NCBI RefSeq assembly: GCF_041886205.1
Contig: NZ_CP169029.1
DNA: 64,000 bases
Origin: Escherichia coli
Lineage (GTDB): Bacteria > Pseudomonadota > Gammaproteobacteria > Enterobacterales > Enterobacteriaceae
Reading direction: 5' to 3' (one strand)
Positions 38,400 through 53,332 of this stretch are shown piece after piece. Numbering within the stretch: the stretch's first letter is position 1; the number at the start of each line of letters is the position of its first letter. The position numbers and the translations under genes are program-made. The notes under the pieces were generated by a model that worked only from the letters and a program-made list of their open reading frames with translations, made no database searches and was not told where the DNA came from.

Positions 38400-40064
38400 T
38401 TAAAACGTTTCCCAGTTCTCACCGCTATCTGCCACGGCCATTTTACGCGGCGCAGCTGGCATCACGGTTTTTACCACAGCCGATGTTTCACGCTGCTGTT
38501 GCTGCTGTTGCTGAATCCGGAACACTGCCACAGCTTCGGTCAGGCGACTGGCCTGCTCTTCCAGCGCGGCGGCGGCAGCGGCAGACTCTTCCACCAACGC
38601 GGCGTTCTGTTGAGTTACCCGGTCCATCTCAGCAACCGCTAAGCCAACCTGATCGATACCGCGGCTCTGCTCATCAGAAGCAGAAGCAATTTCGCCCATA
38701 ATGTCCGTCACGCGGGTCACGGCGCTGACAATCTCCGCCATTGTTTCCCCGGCGCTTTCGACCAGCGTAGAGCCAACATCCACTTTCCCCACCGAGTCTT
38801 CAATCAGGCTTTTAATTTCACGAGCCGCCTGGGCGCTGCGCTGGGCCAGATTACGCACTTCACCCGCGACCACCGCAAAACCGCGCCCTTGCTCACCCGC
38901 ACGCGCAGCCTCAACCGCCGCGTTCAAAGCCAGAATATTGGTCTGGAAGGCAATGCCGTCAATTACGCTGATAATATCGGCGATTTTCTGCGAACTGGTG
39001 GAAATATCGCGCATAGTCTGCACCACGTTATCTACCACTTTGCCGCCGCGTTGCGCCGTTTCAGAAGCACTTAACGCCAGGTGGCTGGCCTGGCGCGCAT
39101 TCTCGGCGTTCTGTTTCACCGTTGCGGTCAGTTGCTCCATGCTGGCTGCCGTCTCTTCCAGCGAAGCGGCCTGTTGCTCGGTGCGCGAAGAGAGATCGTT
39201 ATTGCCGGTGGCGATTTCGCTGGCACCGCTATAGATGGCATTGGCCCCGTTGCGCACATCACCGACGGTACGCATCAGCTCTCCCTGCATATGGCGCAAA
39301 CTCTCTGCCAGTTGCCCCATCTCATTAGAGCCATCCACCTCAATCGGTTTCACCAGATCGCCGCCTGCAATATGACGAATGCTGTCAATCAGGCGATTCA
39401 TTGGCGCTACCAGCGAGGCTTTAATACCGAACCAGACGGCGAAGATGACCGCCAGTACGACGATCATCACGCCCACCAGAATCCACATCGCCTGGCTGTA
39501 GGAGGCATTGTTATCGCTGACGGCGATATCATAGAGCCGATCGTTTTGCTCCATGTAAGCCACATACTGCTTCTCGAAACCGTCCTGATATCCCTGGGTC
39601 GGCTGATCAAAGAACTCGTTGATTTTGCCTGCACCTAACAGTTGGATCAGCTCCGCCAGCGCATTGTGATAAATATCGTAATTACGTTTGATCTCTGCCG
39701 CTGCGGCGGTGCTCTGACGCGGGTCACGCGGCAACGCTTCGTAATCCGCCCAGTTTTTTTCCGCCTGTTTCAGCGAAATACTGGCACTCTGCATCAGCTC
39801 AGCAACGGTTGAACCGCTACCAATATTATTCTGATCCATCATGTAGCGGATACCCGCGCGGTTGAGGGTGTTACGCGTCTGCAACAACGCGACCCAGCTG
39901 CCATTCAGCGTGGATTGCTGCTGGCGAATGGTTTGTAAAACAGTGAAATTTTCTTTGTCATTCTTTAAGGCATTAAAGAACAGACCGCCTGATGTCAGTT
40001 GTAAAAGGCCAAAAACGGCCAAAACCAGCAGTAAGCTGGTCACGATCTTGATACGTTTTAACAT
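38400..40064 (-). CDS. tsr: methyl-accepting chemotaxis protein I (serine chemoreceptor) Tsr
   Basis: 554-aa [37 protein letters not shown]... with HAMP and MCP signalling domain and C-terminal NWETF; carries a longer poly-Gln run (Q7) than I remember for K-12. Confidence 0.92.
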
Positions 40065-40095
40065 GGTTTCTCTTTCCTGTGGACCGACATCAGGA

Positions 40096-40122
40096 TTTTC
40101 GGCCTGAAATGAGAAAACTTTA
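40096..40122 (-). promoter_or_regulatory. sigma28 (FliA)-type promoter of tsr
   Basis: On the minus strand TAAAG-N15-GCCGAAAA matches class III flagellar promoter consensus TAAA-N15-GCCGATAA about 30-60 bp upstream of the tsr start. Confidence 0.55.
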
Positions 40123-40292
40123 TAGGTAGCGACTTGAAACTGGTTAATTTTACCTCACTTTTTTAATTTTTGTTCAAAAATACAATAACCACTTATTGAT
40201 ACATTTTCTTTTCTTATTTTTTTCACACGAATTGTATCTATTTTGAACGAAATATTTTATAGAGTGTGGAATTTTAAGAAAGGACATCTGAA

Positions 40293-40835
40293 ATGTTAAA
40301 CCGTGACTTCGATCATCTCTCAACGCTATTACATCTCTTTTTTGAACGTGAGGATATTTGCCAAAAGCTTAATATTATTGACCAAAACAATATCACCGGT
40401 TGGGAAGTGTGGTTCCAGGTAGAATTTGCTAATATGCTCTGCTCAACAGACCATGAATGGTGGCGTGAACAGGCACTTTCCTGTGATATGCGCAAAAAAC
40501 CTGAACGCCCGACACTACGCACAGATTTCTTACTACGTAAAAAAGGCTGGGCGCAAGATAGCTATATCGCGCTTGAAATAAAACAAAACAGTGACGCGAC
40601 CAGTTGTGTTAAAAATATGATCGCAGACTTAGAAAAAAGCGCCAAAATCAAACGTTCAGAACTCGAGTTACGCAGTTTCTGGACCCTGGGTATCACCCCT
40701 GTGATAGACAGAGAAAGGCTGGATTCTCTCATCGATTGCTATTTAGATGAGAAATTTTATCTTACTAAATCTCGTAAAAAACACGTTTTACTTAAAGAAA
40801 TAAATAATACACCATATTCCTATATTGTTATTTAA
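40293..40835 (+). CDS. hypothetical 180-aa protein with PD-(D/E)xK-like motif (D..ExK: RTDFLL ... YIALEIKQ); AT-rich orphan
   Basis: Intact ATG ORF in an AT-rich (roughly 38-40% GC) segment between divergent tsr and btsT; no recognised family from memory. Confidence 0.4.
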   Translation: MLNRDFDHLSTLLHLFFEREDICQKLNIIDQNNITGWEVWFQVEFANMLCSTDHEWWREQALSCDMRKKPERPTLRTDFLLRKKGWAQDSYIALEIKQNSDATSCVKNMIADLEKSAKIKRSELELRSFWTLGITPVIDRERLDSLIDCYLDEKFYLTKSRKKHVLLKEINNTPYSYIVI

Positions 40836-40943
40836 TATTTATAGCATGAATATAATTTTTATATGAGTTACACAACCGAGGGCTAAAAATCGCTTCGGTT
40901 GTGATCATCATCACATAAATAACCTTCATAAACCTTGCTCAAA

Positions 40944-40992
40944 ACCGCTCAACCGCAAAACTGACCGCTTACGTCCCTAAAATAACCACTCA
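40944..40992 (+). promoter_or_regulatory. BtsR (YehT, LytTR) binding site: three direct repeats ACCGCTCA / ACCGCTTA / ACCACTCA spaced 12-13 bp
   Basis: Matches the ACC(G/A)CT(C/T)A direct-repeat motif described for the yjiY (btsT) promoter; about 140 bp upstream of btsT. Confidence 0.5.
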
Positions 40993-41127
40993 GTTATTTA
41001 CCTTACTTTACGCGCGCGTAACTCTGGCAACATCACTGCAGGATAGCGGTCAATTTACCTCCTCAAACGCAACGCAAACCTAGAACGGCTTCGGCCAACG
41101 ATTAATCAATACATGCCAGGTTTTACT

Positions 41128-43278
41128 ATGGATACTAAAAAGATATTCAAGCACATACCCTGGGTGATTCTCGGAATCATCGGTGCATTCTGCCTCGCGG
41201 TAGTTGCATTACGTCGGGGGGAGCACGTCAGCGCCCTGTGGATCGTGGTCGCCTCTGTGTCGGTGTATCTGGTGGCGTATCGCTACTACAGTCTGTACAT
41301 CGCCCAGAAGGTGATGAAACTCGACCCCACGCGCGCGACGCCTGCGGTTATTAACAACGACGGTCTGAACTACGTTCCGACCAACCGTTACGTGTTGTTT
41401 GGTCACCACTTCGCCGCTATCGCCGGTGCTGGTCCGCTGGTCGGTCCGGTTCTCGCCGCACAGATGGGCTACCTGCCTGGCACGCTGTGGCTGCTGGCGG
41501 GGGTAGTACTGGCCGGTGCGGTTCAGGACTTTATGGTGCTGTTTATCTCCTCTCGCCGTAACGGCGCATCTCTCGGTGAGATGATCAAAGAAGAGATGGG
41601 GCCAGTTCCGGGGACTATCGCGCTGTTTGGCTGTTTCTTAATCATGATCATCATCCTCGCCGTTCTGGCGCTGATTGTGGTTAAAGCCCTGGCCGAAAGT
41701 CCGTGGGGTGTCTTCACCGTTTGCTCAACCGTACCGATTGCGCTGTTTATGGGTATCTACATGCGCTTTATCCGTCCGGGGCGTGTGGGTGAAGTCTCTG
41801 TCATTGGTATCGTGCTGCTGGTTGCCTCTATCTACTTCGGTGGCGTGATTGCTCACGATCCGTACTGGGGTCCGGCACTGACCTTTAAAGACACCACCAT
41901 TACCTTCGCGCTGATTGGCTATGCGTTTGTTTCCGCACTGCTGCCGGTGTGGCTGATCCTCGCACCGCGCGACTATCTGGCAACCTTCCTGAAAATCGGC
42001 GTTATCGTCGGCCTGGCGCTGGGTATCGTGGTGCTGAACCCGGAACTGAAAATGCCTGCGATGACCCAGTACATTGACGGTACTGGCCCGCTATGGAAAG
42101 GCGCTCTGTTCCCGTTCCTGTTCATCACCATCGCCTGTGGTGCGGTATCTGGCTTCCACGCGCTGATCTCTTCCGGTACGACGCCGAAACTGCTGGCTAA
42201 TGAAACCGACGCGCGTTTCATTGGCTACGGCGCAATGCTGATGGAGTCCTTCGTGGCGATTATGGCGCTGGTTGCTGCATCCATCATCGAACCGGGTCTT
42301 TACTTCGCGATGAATACCCCGCCTGCTGGCCTTGGCATCACCATGCCTAACCTGCATGAAATGGGTGGCGAGAACGCGCCGATCATCATGGCGCAGCTGA
42401 AAGACGTTACCGCACACGCGGCAGCGACAGTCAGCTCCTGGGGCTTCGTGATTTCGCCAGAGCAGATCCTGCAAACCGCGAAAGACATTGGTGAGCCTTC
42501 TGTCCTGAACCGTGCAGGTGGTGCGCCGACGCTGGCGGTAGGTATCGCTCACGTGTTCCACAAAGTGCTGCCGATGGCTGACATGGGCTTCTGGTATCAC
42601 TTCGGTATTCTGTTCGAAGCCCTGTTCATCCTGACCGCGCTGGATGCGGGTACTCGTTCTGGCCGCTTTATGCTGCAAGACCTGCTGGGTAACTTCATCC
42701 CGTTCCTGAAAAAAACCGACTCTCTGGTTGCCGGTATCATCGGTACTGCGGGCTGTGTGGGTCTGTGGGGCTACCTGCTGTATCAGGGCGTGGTCGATCC
42801 GCTGGGCGGCGTTAAGAGCCTGTGGCCGCTGTTCGGTATTTCCAACCAGATGCTGGCAGCCGTAGCGCTGGTACTGGGCACCGTTGTGCTGATTAAGATG
42901 AAGCGCACCCAATACATCTGGGTAACTGTTGTTCCGGCTGTATGGCTGCTTATCTGCACCACCTGGGCGCTGGGTCTGAAACTGTTCAGCACCAACCCGC
43001 AGATGGAAGGCTTCTTCTACATGGCAAGCCAGTACAAAGAGAAGATTGCTAACGGTACTGACCTGACGGCGCAGCAGATTGCCAACATGAACCACATCGT
43101 TGTGAACAACTACACCAACGCGGGCCTGAGTATTCTGTTCCTGATTGTGGTGTACAGCATCATCTTCTACGGTTTCAAAACCTGGCTTGCGGTGCGTAAC
43201 AGCGACAAACGTACTGACAAAGAAACACCGTACGTTCCAATCCCGGAAGGCGGCGTGAAGATCTCTTCGCACCACTAA
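41128..43278 (+). CDS. btsT: pyruvate/H+ symporter BtsT (CstA family)
   Basis: Translation MDTKKIFKHIPWVILGIIGAFCLAVVALRRG... (716 aa), polytopic membrane protein; start trimmed to ATG at 41128. Confidence 0.92.
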   Translation: MDTKKIFKHIPWVILGIIGAFCLAVVALRRGEHVSALWIVVASVSVYLVAYRYYSLYIAQKVMKLDPTRATPAVINNDGLNYVPTNRYVLFGHHFAAIAGAGPLVGPVLAAQMGYLPGTLWLLAGVVLAGAVQDFMVLFISSRRNGASLGEMIKEEMGPVPGTIALFGCFLIMIIILAVLALIVVKALAESPWGVFTVCSTVPIALFMGIYMRFIRPGRVGEVSVIGIVLLVASIYFGGVIAHDPYWGPALTFKDTTITFALIGYAFVSALLPVWLILAPRDYLATFLKIGVIVGLALGIVVLNPELKMPAMTQYIDGTGPLWKGALFPFLFITIACGAVSGFHALISSGTTPKLLANETDARFIGYGAMLMESFVAIMALVAASIIEPGLYFAMNTPPAGLGITMPNLHEMGGENAPIIMAQLKDVTAHAAATVSSWGFVISPEQILQTAKDIGEPSVLNRAGGAPTLAVGIAHVFHKVLPMADMGFWYHFGILFEALFILTALDAGTRSGRFMLQDLLGNFIPFLKKTDSLVAGIIGTAGCVGLWGYLLYQGVVDPLGGVKSLWPLFGISNQMLAAVALVLGTVVLIKMKRTQYIWVTVVPAVWLLICTTWALGLKLFSTNPQMEGFFYMASQYKEKIANGTDLTAQQIANMNHIVVNNYTNAGLSILFLIVVYSIIFYGFKTWLAVRNSDKRTDKETPYVPIPEGGVKISSHH

Positions 43279-44498: not shown

Positions 44499-44832
44499 TT
44501 ACCTTAACCTACTCATACGAAGCGGACGAGGATAAAATCCTATCATTTTCCGTTCGCTTCATTATTTTATTTTCTTTCCAATGCCCATTCAAATTAAAAA
44601 TATAACTCTGCCATAACTTCCTGAACACAGATGTAATTACATTGCCACCTCTCATACTTTTAAAAACGATCCATATGACAAGTCGTCCTATTGGGGCGTG
44701 ATAGATGTATTAATTTCCAAATATGCAAACATTCTGATACAGTCCCAAAAAGAAAATAATTACCAACCCAGATAATCAGCAAATAAATTAATGACAGTTG
44801 AATTATAATCAACACGAATACAAGAGATTAAC

Positions 44833-46683
44833 ATGGCAACAATAATCCCAACAATCAGTAGCTGCAACGATAAAATTACTGCCGGAGAGAAAAGGCTGGC
44901 AAGAATTCTGGAAAGAGGACTAGGCGAAGAGTGCTGCTGTTGGTATGACATTCCCACGGGTGATAAGCATCTTCACCCAGATTTTATGATACTTTCGCCA
45001 GAAAAAGGCATTATTTTTCTCGAGGTAAAAGATTGGTTTATTACAAAAATAAAAAAAGCCAACAAGTCTAATGTGTGGTATGAGACACAAAATGGCATTC
45101 AATCTTTAAAGAATCCGATAGAACAAGTTAGGCGATATGCTTTCGAAGCTGTAAACCAGTTAAAAAAAGACCCCCTATTGCGCCAACAGGATGATCGTTA
45201 CAATGGCAATCTTCTTTTCCCCTATGGATATGGCGTCTACTTTAGTAATATTACACGAGAAGCATTAAATAATAAATTTACTCAAGAAGAGCTGCTCGGG
45301 ATCTTCCCATCAGATCTCATCATCTGCAAAGACGAACTAAATGAATTCATGTCAAAAGAGGATGTTTCATCTAAAATACATTCGTTAATTAAATATGACT
45401 TCAAATGTCATGCTACACAAGAACAGTTGAACAGGATTAGATGGCACTTATACCCCGATGTCAGAATAGAAAGGGAAAAGAGAAGTAAAAACCGTGATGA
45501 ATTGAGTGTCGATGCACCAACCATCATTTCTATCCTGGATACTCAACAGGAACAACTTGCCAGGAGTATGAGAGATGGCCACCGAATCATTCATGGTGTT
45601 GCAGGTTCAGGGAAGACATTGATCCTCTATCATCGCTGTCAGGAATTAGCGAAAAAAAATGACAGCGAAAAGCCAATACTTGTCATTTGCTACAATATTA
45701 CTTTAGCCAAAAAACTTCGGTCGATGTTCATCAATCATCCCTTTGCAGAGAAAATAAAGGTTAAAAATTTTCATGCATGGTGTTTCCAACAAATTAAAGA
45801 AAACAAGATCACCATTCCAGAAGGGGATAATATTTTTGAAAATATGGAGCAAGCGTTGACTGATGGTTTCAACACAGGAAAAATAAAACCAGAACAATAC
45901 AGCGCTGTATTAATTGATGAAGGACATGATTTTAAGCCCGAATGGTTAAAAATCCTTGCAAAAATGACTGACTCTCAGGACGAGAATTTGCTATTCCTTT
46001 ATGATGATGCTCAGTCAATTTACCAAAAAAAGAAAGCATTAGACTTTACACTGTCCAGCGTAGATATTAAAGCGACAGGGCGCACAACTATTCTTAATAT
46101 AAATTATAGAAACACACAGCAAATCCTACACTTTGCCAGTTGCATTGCATTTAATTATCTTAATAGCCATATCGATAGTTCTTTAACCTATCATAAACCT
46201 GCTGCGGGAGGAATGAATGGCGATTATCCCAACCTTGAACATTTCGACACACAGGACGAAGAAATAGCAAGAGCAGTCAAATGGATTACAGAGCAAAATG
46301 AACAAGGGATTCCGTGGTCTGAAATTGCTATACTAAGTCCATCAACTCATACCCTTTCTAACTCTCTAAGTTCTGTACTTGAATCGAAAAACATCCCCTT
46401 TAATCTTATTGTAAGCTCTGCAGATAAAAAATCCTGGACGCCAGAACAAGAGCGTGTTTCTGTGATGCCATTACCCAGCAGCAAAGGGCTTGAGTTTCAC
46501 TCAGTTGTCATTATTGACGCAGCGAGAACACGGGATAATAGCGATGATTTGAGTGAGGATATAAAGAGACTCTATGTAGGTTTTACCCGAGCACGTTGCA
46601 ATCTCTTGGTAACCTTGCACGGTGAAGGTGCGTTAAATGAGCATCTACTAAAAACCTATGAGCAAAGCCCACAATATATGTAA
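44833..46683 (+). CDS. NERD-like nuclease domain fused to SF1 (UvrD-like) helicase; candidate Nhi-like defence protein
   Basis: 616 aa. N-terminal NERD-like block (GEKRLARILERGLG ... HPDFMILSPEKGIIFLEVKDW); helicase Walker A HGVAGSGKT, Walker B LIDEGHDF, motif VI VGFTRAR. AT-rich (about 35% GC). Occupies the slot where K-12 has mrr-hsdRMS. Confidence 0.75.
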   Translation: MATIIPTISSCNDKITAGEKRLARILERGLGEECCCWYDIPTGDKHLHPDFMILSPEKGIIFLEVKDWFITKIKKANKSNVWYETQNGIQSLKNPIEQVRRYAFEAVNQLKKDPLLRQQDDRYNGNLLFPYGYGVYFSNITREALNNKFTQEELLGIFPSDLIICKDELNEFMSKEDVSSKIHSLIKYDFKCHATQEQLNRIRWHLYPDVRIEREKRSKNRDELSVDAPTIISILDTQQEQLARSMRDGHRIIHGVAGSGKTLILYHRCQELAKKNDSEKPILVICYNITLAKKLRSMFINHPFAEKIKVKNFHAWCFQQIKENKITIPEGDNIFENMEQALTDGFNTGKIKPEQYSAVLIDEGHDFKPEWLKILAKMTDSQDENLLFLYDDAQSIYQKKKALDFTLSSVDIKATGRTTILNINYRNTQQILHFASCIAFNYLNSHIDSSLTYHKPAAGGMNGDYPNLEHFDTQDEEIARAVKWITEQNEQGIPWSEIAILSPSTHTLSNSLSSVLESKNIPFNLIVSSADKKSWTPEQERVSVMPLPSSKGLEFHSVVIIDAARTRDNSDDLSEDIKRLYVGFTRARCNLLVTLHGEGALNEHLLKTYEQSPQYM

Positions 46684-46705
46684 AAATGATAAATGATCTC
46701 CATAA

Positions 46706-46730
46706 CGCCCGGTAACGCGGTACCGGGCGA
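46706..46730 (+). terminator. hairpin downstream of the NERD-helicase gene
   Basis: Inverted repeat GCCCGGTAACGCGGTACCGGGC about 25 bp after the stop codon. Confidence 0.4.
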
Positions 46731-46827
46731 AATGAATGCATATCTAAGATATTAGTCACGCCTGATAGCCGCTACCAAAAACACCATCATCTCCCTCGCA
46801 TCTTTGCGGTGATAAAATCGTACCATT

Positions 46828-47121
46828 TTGCTGTTAAATTCCAGCGCGTTAGCCGCTGGAATTAACAAGATCAGACTTCCGGCAACGAAGAGCCAGTTAT
46901 TACAAAAATTACTGGCAAAAGAGATAAAAAGCATTGTTGACAACACATCGAAATATCCTGACTGGAGTAAACACGATGATATTAAAGCGAAACTGAAAGT
47001 TGAACTTATTCTGCTTCTACACAAGCATAAGTTCCCGTCAGTAGCGAATGATGATGTTTATATGGGTGTGCTGGCACAGGCAGAGAGTTTTAAAGAACAT
47101 CATATGAGTCCTATAAATTAA
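46828..47121 (+). pseudogene. 97-aa remnant ORF; C-terminal part resembles the helical C-terminal region of type I restriction R subunits (from memory)
   Basis: In-frame stops immediately upstream; segment IKAKLKVELILLLHKHKFPSVANDDVYMGVLAQAESFKEH; AT-rich. Family assignment unverified. Confidence 0.3.
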
Positions 47122-47240
47122 TCATGAAGGCTGGATACACTTTGTTATCCGGCCATTGTGAATTAACGTTAATTTTTCTTCCAAATCTTTCCAGTAACGC
47201 TTTTATTATTTTCTATTTTTAGCTGGACTTTCCCTGTATT

Positions 47241-47260
47241 TACTGATGATATGTCCAGGT
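47241..47260. promoter_or_regulatory. LexA (SOS) box-like site upstream of symE: TACTGATGATATGTCCAGGT (CTG-N10-CAG core)
   Basis: CTG-N10-CAG core about 75 bp upstream of the symE ATG; symE is known to be LexA-regulated. Confidence 0.45.
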
Positions 47261-47299
47261 ATTTAGCGCGGTGCGGATGTGCGCCAACACACCCGCACC

Positions 47300-47376
47300 A
47301 CTCATCACAATCACTATTTTCAAGGAATAGCAGTTATGACTGACACGCATTTTATTGCACAACCGTTCGAAGCAGA
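47300..47376 (-). ncRNA. symR: expected location of the antisense sRNA SymR (antitoxin) overlapping the symE 5' end
   Basis: Placed from established knowledge that SymR is encoded antisense to the symE translation start; exact ends not verifiable from sequence alone. Confidence 0.3.
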
Positions 47377-47677
47377 AGTCTCCCCGGCAAATAACCGTCA
47401 ATTAACCGTGAGTTATGCGAGCCGCTACCCGGATTACAGCCGTATTCCCGCCATCACCCTGAAAGGTCAGTGGCTGGAAGCCGCCGGTTTTGCCACCGGC
47501 ACGGCGGTAGATGTCAAAGTAATGGAAGGCTGTATTGTCCTCACCGCCCAACAACCCGCCGCCGAAGAGAGCGAACTGATGCAGTCGCTGCGCCAGGTGT
47601 GCAAACTGTCGGCGCGTAAACAAAAGCAGGTGCAGGATTTTATTGGGGTGATTGCCGGTAAACAGAAAGTCGCCTGA
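47336..47677 (+). CDS. symE: SOS-induced toxin SymE (AbrB-fold endoribonuclease-like)
   Basis: Translation [72 protein letters not shown]... (113 aa) from ATG at 47336. Confidence 0.9.
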
Positions 47678-47685
47678 TAAATTGA

Positions 47686-47709
47686 CCCGGTAGCGCCAGT
47701 GCTACCGGG
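47686..47709. terminator. bidirectional hairpin terminator between convergent symE and the DUF262 gene
   Basis: Stem CCCGGTAGC / GCTACCGGG with 6-nt loop, 9 nt after the symE stop and 15 nt after the minus-strand gene stop. Confidence 0.55.
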
Positions 47710-47723
47710 TATTATTCGCCACG

Positions 47724-49817
47724 TTATACCAACGCGCTCTCCATCTGTTTTTCAAATGCCTGACGAATTAATCCCATAATGTAAGGAAGTTGTGCGAGGT
47801 CGCTGAAACCAATTTCCACATCACCATTACCCCAGCGCCCAATATTTGTCACATCTTTGGCAATACCTTTCGGATCGACCAGTTCATGAAACTGCATATT
47901 AAGCGACAATCGCAGTCGGCTTTTTTGCGGCACAACATCAACAAAATTCGTTTCAGCTTTAAACGCAATATACAGCTTTAAAACTTCCTGCGTGATCCCT
48001 GCGTCCAGGCGCATAACTTCATCGCGAAGATGATCGAATAACACCCGGCTATGCGAACCATCAGCAAGAAAAGGATAATCACTCAGGCTGTAACTGGTTT
48101 TGTTTTCTGGCTGCCCCCGATAAACAGCTAAAACCTCTTCAGAAAGAGAAGGCGCTTGCCAGACCTGAACCGCGAGATCGGCCAGACGATCGGCTCGGGC
48201 GTGAATGGCGGCTTCATCCCATTTTTCGCACTGTCCAAGACCGATATTCAAATAAAGCGGGCTATGTTTAAAGCCATCTTCAATATCGCGTTTTTCCGCG
48301 AAAGGTCTGTCACTGTAGCGGGAGTTATAGCGCGTTAAAGTGAGATTCCCCAACGTATGTAACAGTTCTTTATGCACACGCTGCCAGTCGCTTCCCAGCT
48401 CTTCACGCCATTTAGCCGACAGATTTTCGTTCTGCGGCATAATGTGCTCAATCGTAAACTCTTCCACGCGCTCTCTGCGTTTATCGTTTTCCAGTCGTCG
48501 TAACCAGTAGCTGCGGCTGCGGAAGTTATAGAGATCGCGCACTTTTAATTCCCGTTTAAATTCATCATCGTTGGGGAAACGACGATATGAAGGCAGGTTC
48601 ATAAAATGTACCTGAATACTTTCCAGATATTTTTCTTTATTAATGACCTTATAAAAAGTGGCAAACGTCTTGTTAAGAGAATTCGTCGGAATCGCACATA
48701 CTGCACGGCGGAAAACATAAGATTCAATTAAACGAATTATGCTCAGGAAATCTTCGTGAGACAAATCGTCATTTTTATAGTCATGATAAAGCGCCAGTAA
48801 GAAAGGATACGCCACATCAACCTTTAACTCGCGCAAATCCTGAAAAGCCGTAGCAAGCGATTTGTCACTTTCTTTTCCCAATGCCATTGCACAGTAATAC
48901 TCCGCGTAGATATGAATATCTTCAACCAGCCGATCTACGCCTTTTTCAGCAACACTCTGGCTGCGGGCATGGAGTTTAAATGCCTCATAGACTTCATCTG
49001 TCCGAGGGATCTCCCCCGTTTTTACCGTCAGATAATGACGCATAAAACTGTCAAAATATTCGCTGTAACCTTGCTGACCAAAGGCGACTTCCATTGGACG
49101 CCAGTGATCTTCATACAACCGGGTTTGATGCTCTGGTTCGAGACCCATCAGAATAAAATTGCGCACCAGATCGGCCTGACTTAACGCCTTACCGGTGGAG
49201 TTCATACTTTCAAAAATCAGTTGCGGATTATCCTGACCACGATTAAGCGCCACATCGACAATTAATAACTTTGCTAACCCTCGACATAAGGGAATCAAGT
49301 CATCCCCGAGTTTGGCAATTTGCTCATCAAAGAAAGTAAAGTTTTCCATTATTCGATGGGAATAGTTTTCTGGCATTGGTCTTTGTTTTATTAACGCCAG
49401 CAAACTGTCTTTATCAGTCTCGGTCAGCAGTAATTTAAAACCTTTCTCGCCGGACTCATAAGGATTGAGCAAATAATAATTACGCAATTTCATTGCCGAA
49501 AAGCCATCAAAAACTTCGTCTTCGCCAAGATGGCGCGATAAAGCCTCAATCAGCAACATTGCGGTCGTCAGCCGCTGCTGACCATCAATGACCAGCAACG
49601 GAGAAATACCAGAAACCTGATACAACCCCTGCTCAATATAAACAACCGAACCGATAAAATGCGCTGATATATCGTCACGCTTTCCGGCACGAATGATGTC
49701 GTCCCAAAGTTGCCGACATTGTTGCCCGGTCCATGAATAGGTGCGTTGATAAATGGGAATAACAAACTGCTGCGAACGTTTTAAAAAATCGAGTAGGCGG
49801 GCTTCTGTAGCTTTCAT
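47724..49817 (-). CDS. DUF262/DUF1524 (GmrSD/BrxU-like) putative type IV restriction endonuclease with an extra C-terminal module
   Basis: 697 aa. N-terminal ParB/DUF262 signatures IPIYQRTYSW and DGQQRLTT; His-Me finger-like segment EHIMPQ...LGNLTLT; about 120-aa C-terminal extension (YIAFKAETNFVDVVPQKSRLRLSLN...). Sits where K-12 has mcrBC. Confidence 0.75.
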   Translation of the reverse strand: MKATEARLLDFLKRSQQFVIPIYQRTYSWTGQQCRQLWDDIIRAGKRDDISAHFIGSVVYIEQGLYQVSGISPLLVIDGQQRLTTAMLLIEALSRHLGEDEVFDGFSAMKLRNYYLLNPYESGEKGFKLLLTETDKDSLLALIKQRPMPENYSHRIMENFTFFDEQIAKLGDDLIPLCRGLAKLLIVDVALNRGQDNPQLIFESMNSTGKALSQADLVRNFILMGLEPEHQTRLYEDHWRPMEVAFGQQGYSEYFDSFMRHYLTVKTGEIPRTDEVYEAFKLHARSQSVAEKGVDRLVEDIHIYAEYYCAMALGKESDKSLATAFQDLRELKVDVAYPFLLALYHDYKNDDLSHEDFLSIIRLIESYVFRRAVCAIPTNSLNKTFATFYKVINKEKYLESIQVHFMNLPSYRRFPNDDEFKRELKVRDLYNFRSRSYWLRRLENDKRRERVEEFTIEHIMPQNENLSAKWREELGSDWQRVHKELLHTLGNLTLTRYNSRYSDRPFAEKRDIEDGFKHSPLYLNIGLGQCEKWDEAAIHARADRLADLAVQVWQAPSLSEEVLAVYRGQPENKTSYSLSDYPFLADGSHSRVLFDHLRDEVMRLDAGITQEVLKLYIAFKAETNFVDVVPQKSRLRLSLNMQFHELVDPKGIAKDVTNIGRWGNGDVEIGFSDLAQLPYIMGLIRQAFEKQMESALV

Positions 49818-49913
49818 TCTGACGTCTTTCCGTGAAGCGATGATTTCGCAATAATAACCGCTTCCTTGTGGAGGTTATAGAGAAATCCTGTTTATCCGCG
49901 ATGAATTGCCCCC

Positions 49914-50078
49914 TCACTCCACATCCTCCCTACGTAACCCAATATCCCTCAACCGCTCATCACTCATCTGCTGTAACACTCGTCGGGTCTGCATTTGCCG
50001 CCGCCAACGCCTCACCGCCTGCCAGAGTTGCACAAGTCTGATAAACGGCGTTTTGGCTTTGTTTTCGTGAAATTCCAT
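49914..50078 (-). CDS. yjiS: small DUF1127 protein YjiS
   Basis: 54-aa ORF (too short for the ORF track) MEFHENKAKTPFIRLVQLWQAVRRWRRQMQTRRVLQQMSDERLRDIGLRREDVE with GAGGAGG RBS 7 nt upstream. Confidence 0.7.
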   Translation of the reverse strand: MEFHENKAKTPFIRLVQLWQAVRRWRRQMQTRRVLQQMSDERLRDIGLRREDVE

Positions 50079-50254
50079 CTGCTGCCTCCTCATCTTTCAG
50101 AGGCTTCATCATCCGCCTTCTGGCAGTTCACAATACAGATGCAAATATTAGTTTTATTTAACATACAGACAGGTTAAAACAGCATCTGCATCCGGTTTTT
50201 TAGCCTCATCTGTACCGGTTTTTCTTTCTGTATGGGCCAAATAAGGAATACAGC

Positions 50255-51667
50255 ATGACGCGTTATCAACATCTGGCGACTCTACTTGCCGAGCGGATTG
50301 AGCAAGGGCTGTATCGTCACGGGGAGAAATTGCCGTCGGTGCGCAGCTTAAGTCAGGAGCACGGCGTCAGCATCAGCACCGTGCAACAGGCGTATCAGAC
50401 GCTGGAAACGATGAGGCTCATCACTCCGCAGCCGCGTTCGGGTTATTTTGTCGCACAACGTAAAGCCCAGCCGCCTGTACCGCCGATGACGCGTCCGGTG
50501 CAGCGCCCGGTGGAAATTACCCAGTGGGATCAGGTGCTGGATATGCTGGAGGCGCATAGCGACAGTTCCATTGTTCCGTTAAGCAAAAGCACGCCGGATG
50601 TCGAAACGCCCAGCCTGAAACCGCTGTGGCGGGAGCTAAGCCGGGTGGTGCAGCATAATCTACAAACCGTTCTCGGTTATGACTTGTTAGCCGGTCAGCG
50701 AGTGTTGCGAGAGCAGATTGCCCGCCTGATGCTCGACAGCGGCTCGGTGGTCACCGCCGATGACATCATCATCACCAGCGGCTGCCATAACTCGATGTCG
50801 CTGGCGTTAATGGCGGTGTGTAAACCGGGCGATATTGTCGCGGTCGAATCCCCCTGTTATTACGGTTCGATGCAGATGCTGCGCGGCATGGGCGTGAAAG
50901 TGATTGAAATCCCAACCGATCCAGAAACTGGCATCAGCGTCGAAGCGCTGGAACTGGCGCTGGAACAGTGGCCGATTAAAGGCATCATTCTGGTGCCAAA
51001 CTGTAATAATCCGCTGGGATTTATTATGCCGGACGCACGCAAACGGGCCGTTCTCTCTCTCGCTCAGCGTCATGATATTGTGATTTTTGAAGATGATGTC
51101 TACGGCGAACTGGCAACGGAGTATCCGCGCCCGCGGACCATCCATTCATGGGATATCGACGGGCGAGTGTTGTTGTGCAGCTCGTTCAGTAAAAGTATTG
51201 CTCCAGGCCTGCGCGTGGGTTGGGTCGCACCGGGGCGTTATCACGATAAACTGCTGCATATGAAATACGCCATCAGCAGCTTTAATGTGCCGTCCACGCA
51301 AATGGCGGCGGCAACGTTTGTGCTGGAAGGTCACTATCATCGCCATATCCGGCGGATGCGGCAGACTTATCAGCGCAATCTGGCGCTTTATACCTGCTGG
51401 ATACGGGAATATTTTCCCTGCGAAATCTGTATTACGCGCCCGAAAGGCGGATTTTTACTGTGGATCGAATTGCCTGAACAGGTCGATATGGTTTGCGTTG
51501 CGCGGCAGCTGTGCCGCATGAAAATCCAGGTGGCGGCAGGCTCGATTTTCTCGGCTTCCGGCAAATATCGTAATTGTCTGCGCATCAACTGCGCTTTGCC
51601 GCTCAGCGAAACCTATCGCGAAGCACTGAAGCAAATTGGCGAAGCCGTGTATCGGGCAATGGAATGA
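50255..51667 (+). CDS. yjiR: MocR-like regulator YjiR (GntR HTH fused to PLP aminotransferase fold)
   Basis: 470-aa ORF with N-terminal HTH (LPSVRSLSQEHGVSISTVQQAYQTLE) and aminotransferase-like C-terminal domain. Confidence 0.88.
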   Translation: MTRYQHLATLLAERIEQGLYRHGEKLPSVRSLSQEHGVSISTVQQAYQTLETMRLITPQPRSGYFVAQRKAQPPVPPMTRPVQRPVEITQWDQVLDMLEAHSDSSIVPLSKSTPDVETPSLKPLWRELSRVVQHNLQTVLGYDLLAGQRVLREQIARLMLDSGSVVTADDIIITSGCHNSMSLALMAVCKPGDIVAVESPCYYGSMQMLRGMGVKVIEIPTDPETGISVEALELALEQWPIKGIILVPNCNNPLGFIMPDARKRAVLSLAQRHDIVIFEDDVYGELATEYPRPRTIHSWDIDGRVLLCSSFSKSIAPGLRVGWVAPGRYHDKLLHMKYAISSFNVPSTQMAAATFVLEGHYHRHIRRMRQTYQRNLALYTCWIREYFPCEICITRPKGGFLLWIELPEQVDMVCVARQLCRMKIQVAAGSIFSASGKYRNCLRINCALPLSETYREALKQIGEAVYRAME

Positions 51668-51783
51668 ATTCGAAATAGTGGCGAAGCACCTGATTTACTC
51701 TCAAGAATCGCCTGTAACTCGTTTTATCTTTATAGCGACATCGCCACGTTCCGGCATGGCTTAGGCAAAGTGCGCTTTGTTCA

Positions 51784-51885
51784 TGCCGGATGCCATGTGA
51801 ACGCCTTACCAGGTCTACAAAATCTTTAAAGTTCAATATATTTAATGGGTTATGTAGACCTGATAAGCGTAGCGCATCAGGCTGC
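51784..51885. repeat. REP element pair (BIME) downstream of yjiR
   Basis: GCCGGATGCCATGTGAACGCCTTACCAGGTCTACAA and inverted copy GTAGACCTGATAAGCGTAGCGCATCAGGC. Confidence 0.6.
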
Positions 51886-51909
51886 TTTGCGTTTGTCATC
51901 AGTCTCTGA

Positions 51910-52866
51910 TTAGTACTCGATCCATGGATCGCGCTTGCTTTCAGGCAAGGGCTGATCTAATGCCTGCATTTGCTCTGCCGAAAGTCCGGTATATCGTTGT
52001 ATCCATTCAGGATCGGCCCCATTCTGCAACAACAATCGGAGGAGGCTCCGTTCCCCTTCTACTTTCCCTTCTTTCCTCCCCCTCTCCCTTCCCAACAGCC
52101 ATCCATCATTATGAATTCGCTCTGCAATTGTCATTATTCGCTCCCTGTGGTGTGGCATTCGCCTGGTAAGTTCGCTGATAAACGCCTTAAAACGCGCTTC
52201 ATCGCCAGTCAGTAAAATGTAATTTAACAGCGCAGTTATCTGGCTGTCATTAGCACACTCTGTAACCAGTAATACTACCAGTTGATCGATAAGCTCCATC
52301 AGATCGCGCTGGCGAATATGCTTTTGGATCAACTCCAACAGAGCGACTCTGCGATGCTGCACAATCACGTCGTCTGGCACGACAGTGATATCCACCAGCG
52401 GGAACGCGGCGGTATAAAGCTTCCGTGCGGTAGTCGGGTCGGCAAATTCGTCCAGCCAGCACAGGGACCAGGGATAAGGACTACGGCTACCGTGATAAAA
52501 CAGCATCGGGATGACCAGCGGTAGCGGCCGGCGTTTATCATGCTCAATATGGCGCTGCATCACCGCCATGGAATATCGCATCAGGCGAAAGGCCATATGA
52601 ATATCCTCACGGCTCTGATGTTCAATCACTACGTAAATATAACCACCACCTTCACGGGTCTTTACCGACCACAGAATATCGGAGTGTAGCGCCCGCAATT
52701 TTTCATCGACAAAGCTGGCGGATTCCAGTTTTAAACTGTCGAGATCGCACTGTTCACGTAAATCTTTAGGTAAGTGGATCTCCATAAAATCCCGCGCGGT
52801 GTCAGGGTGCATGAGAAAGGACTTAAATAATGCGTCATGCGGCGTGCTGGTCGTGAAGTTTGTCAT
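51910..52866 (-). CDS. rpnD: Rpn-family (YhgA-like, PD-(D/E)xK) recombination-promoting nuclease, apparently full length
   Basis: 318-aa [36 protein letters not shown]... at the yjiP/yjiQ position; the K-12 locus is split, from memory. Confidence 0.75.
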
Positions 52867-53332
52867 GGCGATCCGTCACCTGTAGATAAGATGGCCCGAC
52901 TGTAGCGACTAACAAAACCATTCTCACCCGGCAATTTCTCGTTCCCCGAGGTGCTTTCCAGGCTATTTTTGTTCCTCTGCAAACGATACATTTTTCCGGA
53001 AACAGGCTCGCGTTTTACATTTCCTGTACCCGGCAGATATTCCCCTTTCCACCGCGCTCTTTTGATTAACCGCAAATTTTAATTACACTTAAGGTGTATA
53101 TTTTCTATGCAACCCATCAATTAAAGAGGTGTAATGTGCTGATGACTATTTGTAATCGTTATACATTCTGACCTGGAGTCAGAAGGTATTTCTCTGTCTG
53201 TGTGTTCACAGGCAGTGTGGTTGATTACATGAAATTCAGTACATTTGTCCTTCTCGCCTGCCCTTCGTCATTACCGACGGTATTGAATTTCGTTTTCCCC
53301 GTTGGGGTTCTCCGGACAAGGAGTTGTTTGTT

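Follow-up and report, generated by a model that had tools for sequence, protein, structure and literature searches.

This analysis concerns a small gene in the spacer between tsr and btsT of Escherichia coli, lying within a stretch of 64,000 nucleotides of contig NZ_CP169029.1 (RefSeq assembly GCF_041886205.1), the whole of which we call the window. The gene is a genuine one under strong purifying selection, and its product is confidently predicted, from structure modelling, to be a minimal, single-domain protein of the PD-(D/E)xK (restriction-endonuclease-like) fold in which the conserved motif is intact. The reading we favour, though we give it somewhat less than an even chance, is that of an autonomous metal-dependent endonuclease acting on foreign nucleic acid, a statement in which activity, substrate and defence role are what we infer. 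The sequence is already held in RefSeq as a hypothetical protein and hence is not new; the family is undescribed, lacks a characterised member and is not modelled in Pfam, NCBIfam, PHROGs or PADLOC.

40293..40835, plus strand: open reading frame (ORF) of 180 amino acids with an ATG start, stop codon included, encoding a predicted stand-alone PD-(D/E)xK-fold protein

A preliminary description, made from the letters of the window, had drawn attention to this ATG-initiated frame in AT-rich DNA, and composition bears it out: the ORF has a GC content of 38.9% against 50.3% for the whole window, and the DNA on both sides of it drops to 27-30%. That it might be a spurious or decaying ORF in a non-coding AT-rich spacer could be argued from the lack of a Pfam family and of a clear promoter or intrinsic terminator, but this explanation is effectively refuted. 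A chance ORF is excluded, since random sequence with the base composition of this segment would stay open over 180 codons with a probability of about 2e-6, while the existence of homologues, together with ratios of nonsynonymous to synonymous substitution (dN/dS) of 0.03-0.08, identifies a selected reading frame. These ratios were obtained by the pairwise Nei-Gojobori method across all pairs with unsaturated dS, and include 0.083 for the window against O157, 0.038 for the window against E. coli GF43 and 0.024-0.034 for Citrobacter pairs. A search of 5.8 billion proteins recovered 40 homologues, almost all of 180 amino acids, from Citrobacter (79% identity), Serratia fonticola, Enterobacter, Pseudomonas and Aeromonas (39-44% in the last two), and at 72-80% identity the length is a constant 180. 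A profile search of 1.84 billion cluster representatives returned 319 clusters (at the 50% identity level) with E <= 1e-3, 64 of them with E <= 1e-30; their full-length members are nearly all of 175-195 amino acids. Hosts of homologues reach from Citrobacter to Campylobacterota. This constancy of length, the hundreds of homologue clusters and the confident structure prediction described below all argue against a spurious frame.

The assignment to a nuclease fold rests on conserved residues and on a model. All three motif peptides quoted in the preliminary description are in place, with E38 in GWEVWFQVEF, D78 in RTDFLL and E95/K97 in YIALEIKQ. Two alignments were used, A1 with 21 homologues at 39-97% identity and A2 with 79 representatives at 24-45%. 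Invariant in A1 are E38, Q42, E44, D78, E95, K97, Q98, D112, K115, S122, R127, S128 and W130; in A2, E44 and D112 remain invariant and E38, D78, E95 and K97 are conserved in at least 90% of sequences. The latter four are the predicted catalytic residues. An AlphaFold2 model built from A1 (mean predicted local distance difference test, pLDDT, 89.8; predicted template modelling score, pTM, 0.87) consists of an N-terminal hairpin of two helices (residues 2-31), an alpha-beta-beta-beta-alpha-beta core with a mixed sheet (helix 38-50; strands 54-64, 74-83 and 90-98; helix 102-116; strand 125-136) and a small C-terminal subdomain. E38 and E44 lie on the first core helix, D78 on the second strand and E95-x-K97 on the third, so that in the model the acidic residue of helix 1, that of strand 2 and the (D/E)-x-K of strand 3 fall on the elements expected of a PD-(D/E)xK protein. 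Foldseek searches of the PDB and of BFVD (viral models) matched almost exclusively proteins of this superfamily, with best E-values of just 3.6e-3 (PDB) and 3.4e-4 (BFVD) and template modelling scores of 0.3-0.4. As the model, the motif positions and the Foldseek neighbours agree, the minimal PD-(D/E)xK fold first proposed from the motif alone is supported at superfamily level.

Profile and literature searches placed the protein in no described family. The sole Pfam signal was TnsA_N (PF08722) at 15.2 bits (E 0.033; gathering threshold 26.5 bits), matched at E < 0.01 by just two of 79 family members; NCBIfam gave no match for the protein, and Pfam, NCBIfam, PHROGs and PADLOC applied to the 79 members gave nothing usable. 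Sequence and profile searches against PDB chains yielded either no match or a chance match to a ribosomal protein. The protein differs from TnsA not only in this sub-threshold score but also in having no TnsA C-terminal domain, and from Tn7-like elements in that neither tnsBCD genes nor transposon ends lie near the ORF and no transposition genes recur at the 51 loci considered below. It is 8-9% identical to the nuclease domains of Wolbachia CinB/CidB, which are parts of proteins of 650-730 amino acids neutralised by CinA/CidA, whereas the protein studied here is single-domain and partnerless. It has nothing like the N-terminal domain of Shedu SduA or the cA3 pocket of the NucC effector by way of a sensor or regulatory part. 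Nor is the family listed in the searchable text or supplements of papers on Shedu, NucC, integron defence cassettes and prophage morons; papers on defence genes in the V. cholerae integron and in mobile integrons describe no obviously matching cassette, and we found no mention of the family in the searchable literature.

In size and overall topology the closest structural neighbours are the small type IIP enzymes OkrAI, BamHI, BstYI and BglII (130-137 residues aligned), at an identity of just 7-11%. This likeness, as well as the position of the gene near a classical E. coli restriction hotspot, would suit an orphan type II-like restriction enzyme, one whose sites are protected by an unlinked or host-wide methyltransferase (Dam, Dcm) or which is the methylase-less relic of a restriction-modification system. 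Several observations make this explanation very unlikely, the first of which come from the neighbourhoods of the gene. A scan of one genome per species, with A1 as query, gave 51 loci in Gamma- and Betaproteobacteria and one Campylobacterota metagenome-assembled genome, and the 605 proteins encoded by ORFs within 7 kb of these loci were clustered all against all. No neighbour cluster occurred at more than seven of the 51 loci, recurrences being confined to single genera, and no methyltransferase cluster recurred. When the 150 nearest non-redundant neighbours were summarised by Pfam, no family was found in more than three proteins and no methyltransferase was among the 25 most frequent of 160 families; a PADLOC summary of the same neighbours revealed no partner either. 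In none of the contexts examined does the family have the adjacent methyltransferase of a type II restriction-modification system, and in Vibrio a cassette holds the family gene only. Type II enzymes seldom show a conservation of about 40% with so many positions invariant across classes; they are usually much less conserved across taxa than this family, and their specificity-determining elements are unrecognisable here. Dam and Dcm are not common to all host taxa (Acinetobacter, Pseudomonas, Campylobacterota). Domain fusions were also sought and rejected, as the longer homologues (P0069, P0134 and P0167) are read-through or mis-called ORFs, none with a Pfam domain; one long homologue is joined to what was identified by eye as a fragment of a REP-associated tyrosine transposase (IS200-like). 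We are confident that the family gene works without a linked partner, methyltransferase or domain fusion.

Within E. coli the gene is part of a variable segment that sits between the control regions of its two neighbours, tsr on the left (38400..40064, minus strand) and btsT on the right, whose annotated start at 41128 was read from the nearly identical genome EC6622. The relevant features are as follows.

40124..40944, no strand: variable segment of 821 bp, delimited by BLAST breakpoints against K-12; the unit of presence/absence and of allelic exchange
40124..40277, plus strand: AT-rich upstream region of 27-30% GC, recognised by composition and unconserved between genera (alignment A4)
40096..40122, minus strand: tsr promoter outside the cassette, with -35 element TAAAGTTT (40115-40122), an 11-nucleotide spacer and -10 element GCCGAAAA (40096-40103), which we take to be of sigma-28 type by the established FliA promoter consensus
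40900..40995, plus strand: btsT regulatory DNA forming the right boundary, retained in all alleles (from sequence; alignment A5)
40900-40915, plus strand: CRP-like perfect palindrome TGTGATCATCATCACA, a match to the consensus only
40945-40995, plus strand: YehT/BtsR-binding repeats, matching a published fragment (PMC4847170)

According to the preliminary description, no gene is known to be annotated at this place in K-12, and the ORF is indeed absent there: homology to K-12 ends at 40123 and restarts at 40945, with 136 unrelated bp in place of the 821 bp of the window and no detectable similarity that would mark the K-12 sequence as a remnant of the cassette. The left breakpoint lies directly upstream of the -35 element of the tsr promoter, which is kept in all eight aligned genomes, and the right breakpoint coincides with the beginning of the yjiY (btsT) promoter fragment employed by Jung and co-workers as the YehT (BtsR) binding site (PMC4847170). 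Because the breakpoints abut promoter elements, the segment fits exactly between two divergent promoters with neither damaged, and both promoters stand just outside it, flanking the ORF in the way first described. A palindrome equivalent to TGTGATCATCATCACA is present in all alleles, K-12 and BL21 included. No terminal inverted or direct repeats bound the segment, for which reason an origin of the E. coli copy as an insertion sequence (IS), miniature inverted-repeat transposable element or transposon was rejected; neither is this copy an attC-bounded ORF of the integron-cassette kind.

The full segment was found in 362 of 5,426 complete E. coli genomes (6.7%), always as a single chromosomal copy, and its protein is labelled "hypothetical protein" by RefSeq in every E. 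coli carrier. All O157:H7 genomes among those listed carry it (protein WP_000934391.1), and the protein cluster of the ORF also includes entries named E. marmotae and E. ruysiae. The earlier suggestion of an unannotated or strain-specific insertion therefore holds as regards strain specificity; it fails as regards annotation, given the RefSeq label, and insertion is not established. In Citrobacter and Phytobacter a family gene occupies the same tsr-btsT slot, and since the slot is thus filled in these genera as well as in E. marmotae and E. ruysiae, loss from K-12-like lineages is at least as likely as insertion in the carriers. Identity to the Citrobacter proteins is 78-80% for the ORF product, 86% for Tsr, 95% for BtsT and 92-93% for LgoT and YjiA, values compatible with a faster-evolving gene long resident in the slot and lost from most E. 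coli; import of the segment into E. coli is a possible alternative to long residence. The slot has further occupants, as B-type strains have the hpa (4-hydroxyphenylacetate) cluster here, ending at the same CRP/BtsR control region. From the 136 bp of K-12, the cassette of the window and the hpa cluster of B-type strains, the tsr-btsT spacer emerges as a recurrent, multi-allelic site of variation. In BL21 (L003, 1-3300) about 125 bp of additional sequence lie just ahead of the btsT start.

E. coli GF43 (L062, 2772-3640) carries a second, deeply diverged allele of the cassette, with a dS of 0.74 between it and the window as against 0.05-0.08 for the flanking tsr and btsT. In a sliding comparison this divergence was limited to about 40065-40960, outside of which identity is 98-100%. 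Because divergence is confined in this way, the cassette, comprising AT-rich leader and ORF, acts like a single block in exchange between alleles, or like an old polymorphism. Beside tsr, GF43 has a gene for a TRAP transporter, as does Citrobacter braakii, at the place where the window has lgoT.

Outside E. coli the gene recurs in settings of three main kinds. In Vibrio genomosp. F10 (L043) it stands alone between two VCR-type attC sites, in V. hepatarius (L040) it lies within an array of at least nine attC sites, one of them upstream of it, and in V. harveyi and Photobacterium galatheae (loci L041 and L029) an attC site is found just upstream; it is the Vibrionaceae homologues only that qualify as integron cassettes. 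A scan of IMG/VR identified eight viral contigs with the family gene, seven of them of 57-62% GC. On five of the eight (L064, L067, L068, L069, L070) the gene lies on the opposite strand directly beside packaging genes, and L071 shows a looser version of the same map, with a small terminase subunit nearby and no large subunit found. PHROG scans of the representatives L067, L069 and L064 identified the adjoining block as small and large terminase subunits, portal and head morphogenesis genes, with holins and NinB on the other side of the family gene in L067; at a genome locus of P. japonica (L023) gene sizes and strands follow in the same order as on the prophage contigs. This place and orientation in Pseudomonas-type prophages, between lysis and terminase genes, is typical of a prophage "moron". 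When INPHARED phages and PLSDB plasmids were searched by tblastn with the E. coli protein there were no matches, and the IMG/VR scan is the sole source of the link to prophages. Elsewhere the family gene lies in an integrase-bounded island with a type I HsdR (Serratia fonticola), adjoins SIR2-HerA (a betaproteobacterium) or follows aconitase (five species of Acinetobacter). In most hosts with usable flanks its GC content is 5-15 points below them, over flanks ranging from 32 to 62% GC. It is, in short, a one-gene module that takes three forms: an attC cassette in Vibrionaceae, a moron in Pseudomonas-type prophages, and, in Enterobacteriaceae, Acinetobacter and Xenorhabdus, an islet of low GC content set between core genes.

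Two side observations were made on these loci. A transposase (phrog_513) separates the small terminase subunit from the family gene in L064 (4325-5727) and L071 (4834-5442), and one of these two contigs has an HNH endonuclease in the same gap; from both occupants, the terminase-family gene junction is suggested to be a place where accessory or selfish genes generally land. About seven of the 51 genome loci (L033, L039, L046, L054, L057, L058, L059) hold truncated or frameshifted copies, fragments of 96-136 amino acids of which L057 has two adjacent ones, which indicates recurrent decay of the gene beside strong conservation elsewhere.

Another explanation is a selfish, free-standing homing-type endonuclease, which would cut an empty allele (the tsr-btsT spacer of K-12-like strains, a phage lacking the cassette or a vacant integron site) and be copied in by repair, with no host benefit needed. 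Such an enzyme would account for a single gene with sharp boundaries between conserved genes and with common empty alleles within a species, for phage copies beside terminase genes, a classic site of free-standing homing endonucleases, and for the HNH endonuclease and IS element in that same gap; the decayed copies are as a homing cycle predicts, and the recombination breakpoints of the GF43 allele fall right at the cassette edges. We nevertheless consider it quite unlikely. A dN/dS of 0.03-0.08 over long vertical descent in one slot of Escherichia, Citrobacter and Phytobacter is at odds with it, as are the small share of carriers among E. coli genomes, with no sign of a recent sweep, and the age of the alleles (dS 0.11-0.74), which are not near-identical across backgrounds. 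Moreover, PD-(D/E)xK homing enzymes are rare, and integron cassettes are moved by IntI rather than by homing.

The same strength of purifying selection, with many invariant residues across Gamma- and Betaproteobacteria, would suit a dispensable cellular nuclease, a DNA- or RNA-processing enzyme (structure-specific repair or recombination, or an RNase) that is patchily lost and not aimed at foreign DNA. Its stable position beside housekeeping genes within genera and its tolerance without a methyltransferase or immunity partner fit equally well. We judge this explanation unlikely, although it has some plausibility: the GC deficit in most hosts, the integron-cassette and prophage-moron contexts and the presence/absence variation within a species are signatures of an accessory gene, no operon or regulon ties it to repair genes, and it is absent from K-12, from Salmonella LT2-type reference genomes and from most E. 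coli.

The occurrence in an integron cassette and as a prophage moron, the restriction or SIR2-HerA neighbours, the GC deficit and the polymorphism within a species together form the pattern of genes in conflict with mobile DNA, and it is on account of this pattern that we prefer an endonuclease directed against foreign nucleic acid. A further setting of the conflict type is that of the window itself, where the gene stands about 4 kb from the yjiA-mdtM hotspot with its type IV restriction enzyme, helicase and SymE. In the mechanism envisaged, the product would be an endonuclease that depends on divalent metal ions and probably works as a homo-oligomer, in the manner of the small type II enzymes to which it is similar. 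Its target would be nucleic acid of a kind not presented by the host itself, for instance foreign DNA that is modified, replicating or marked in some other way. Phages or other mobile DNA would thereby meet a barrier made by one gene, akin to a type IV enzyme or a superinfection-exclusion gene. A more far-reaching claim, which we regard as possible but doubtful, is that the family represents a minimal immune gene against phages or mobile DNA, whose product of about 180 amino acids comprises little beyond the nuclease core, with short helices and strands on either side. It would need no methyltransferase, sensor or partner, would discriminate self from foreign in an undescribed way, and would be common to integron cassettes, prophages and all E. 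coli O157:H7.

A number of observations weigh against an endonuclease aimed at foreign DNA. Type IV restriction enzymes usually have a modification-reading domain and none is recognisable here, nor is any other modification-sensing domain for discriminating self from non-self visible in the single-domain protein, and invariance at so many positions is seen more often in proteins with a conserved cellular role than in restriction enzymes, which evolve fast. The ORF protein matched no PHROGs family and no model of PADLOC-DB 2.0 above noise (best E-values 0.0014, to an orphan methyltransferase model over the C-terminal 65 residues, and 0.0093), and neither its accessions nor its peptide strings occur among the validated E. 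coli defence systems listed in the DefensePredictor supplements. Most neighbours at the 51 loci are housekeeping genes (aconitase, UbiD, LeuA, Omp85) and a small minority of loci adjoin recognised defence genes, so that enrichment of the classical defence-island type is weak; within Acinetobacter, Xenorhabdus and Citrobacter, furthermore, the gene keeps to one stable site. As to expression, no sigma-70-like site was found on the plus strand of 40124..40277, the count of matches being that expected by chance, and the AT-rich DNA of the segment may be silenced.

Whichever function proves correct, a nameless family that is fixed in O157:H7 and present in other Escherichia, Citrobacter, Acinetobacter, Vibrio and Pseudomonas prophages invites attention. 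A specialist would be unsurprised by another orphan nuclease fold; a stand-alone nuclease tolerated without a protective methylase poses the questions of how the host genome is avoided and of what is attacked. With K-12 as a natural null background and a gene of just 543 bp these are easily tested, and minimal size, complete autonomy, three mobile contexts and fixation in O157:H7 make for a cheap and well-defined experimental candidate. If it is a defence gene, it would be among the smallest such genes, and the tsr-btsT spacer would be a second variable slot beside the classical immigration-control region; if it is not, what remains is an uncharacterised conserved nuclease family.

Two further features accompany the ORF.

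40278..40284, plus strand: ribosome-binding site GAAAGGA, with its AGGA core at 40281-40284, 8 nucleotides 5' of the ATG (from sequence)
40871..40903, plus strand: hairpin with an 11-bp stem, 36 nucleotides past the stop codon (-19.5 kcal/mol, z -5.4)

The N-terminus of the ORF and its ribosome-binding site are kept between genera and the remaining upstream spacer is not, AAGAAAGGA / AAAGGAT being the sole upstream block shared across Escherichia, Citrobacter and Phytobacter (alignment A4). The AT-rich region upstream belongs to the cassette and presumably holds the promoter of the ORF. The top sigma-70-like match, TTAACA-17-TAAAAT (10/12), was found at 40271-40299 on the minus strand, where it overlaps the start codon of the ORF and faces tsr; to judge from its letters it could produce an antisense transcript to the 5' leader of the ORF or serve as a second tsr promoter, with the reservation that the number of sigma-70-like matches around the ORF, this one included, equals chance expectation. 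Downstream, the 3' arm of the hairpin runs into the CRP-like palindrome, and no U tract follows. Citrobacter has a hairpin at the equivalent position with different stem letters, from which its structure, rather than its sequence, seems to be conserved. A scan of the ORF region for intrinsic terminators found none; the hairpin is likely a 3'-end or terminator-like element and may determine where the transcript stops before the btsT control region.

The neighbouring tsr also varies between strains, in the length of a run of glutamines near the C-terminus of Tsr (window about 38490-38530, minus strand). The gene has 1656 nucleotides in K-12 and GF43, 1665 in the window and O157:H7, and 1674 in EC6622, where length is the sole difference from the tsr of the window. 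This variation has the appearance of a codon-repeat polymorphism of the CAG/CTG type.

Past btsT, yjiX and yjiA, at a distance of 3.7 kb downstream from the ORF, the yjiA-mdtM hotspot begins, and in the window this "immigration control" slot (44500-53073) contains the following genes.

44833-46683, plus strand: UvrD-like helicase with a NERD domain
47279-47677, plus strand: homologue of the SymE toxin
47724-49817, minus strand: GmrSD-family type IV restriction enzyme with a DUF5655 tail

Also encoded in the slot are a regulator of the GntR/aminotransferase type and a YhgA-like (Rpn) protein. In EC6622, otherwise the closest genome and 99.2-99.4% identical to the window over 17.4-44.5 kb, the slot has just a frameshifted brnT-brnA pair and an IS1.

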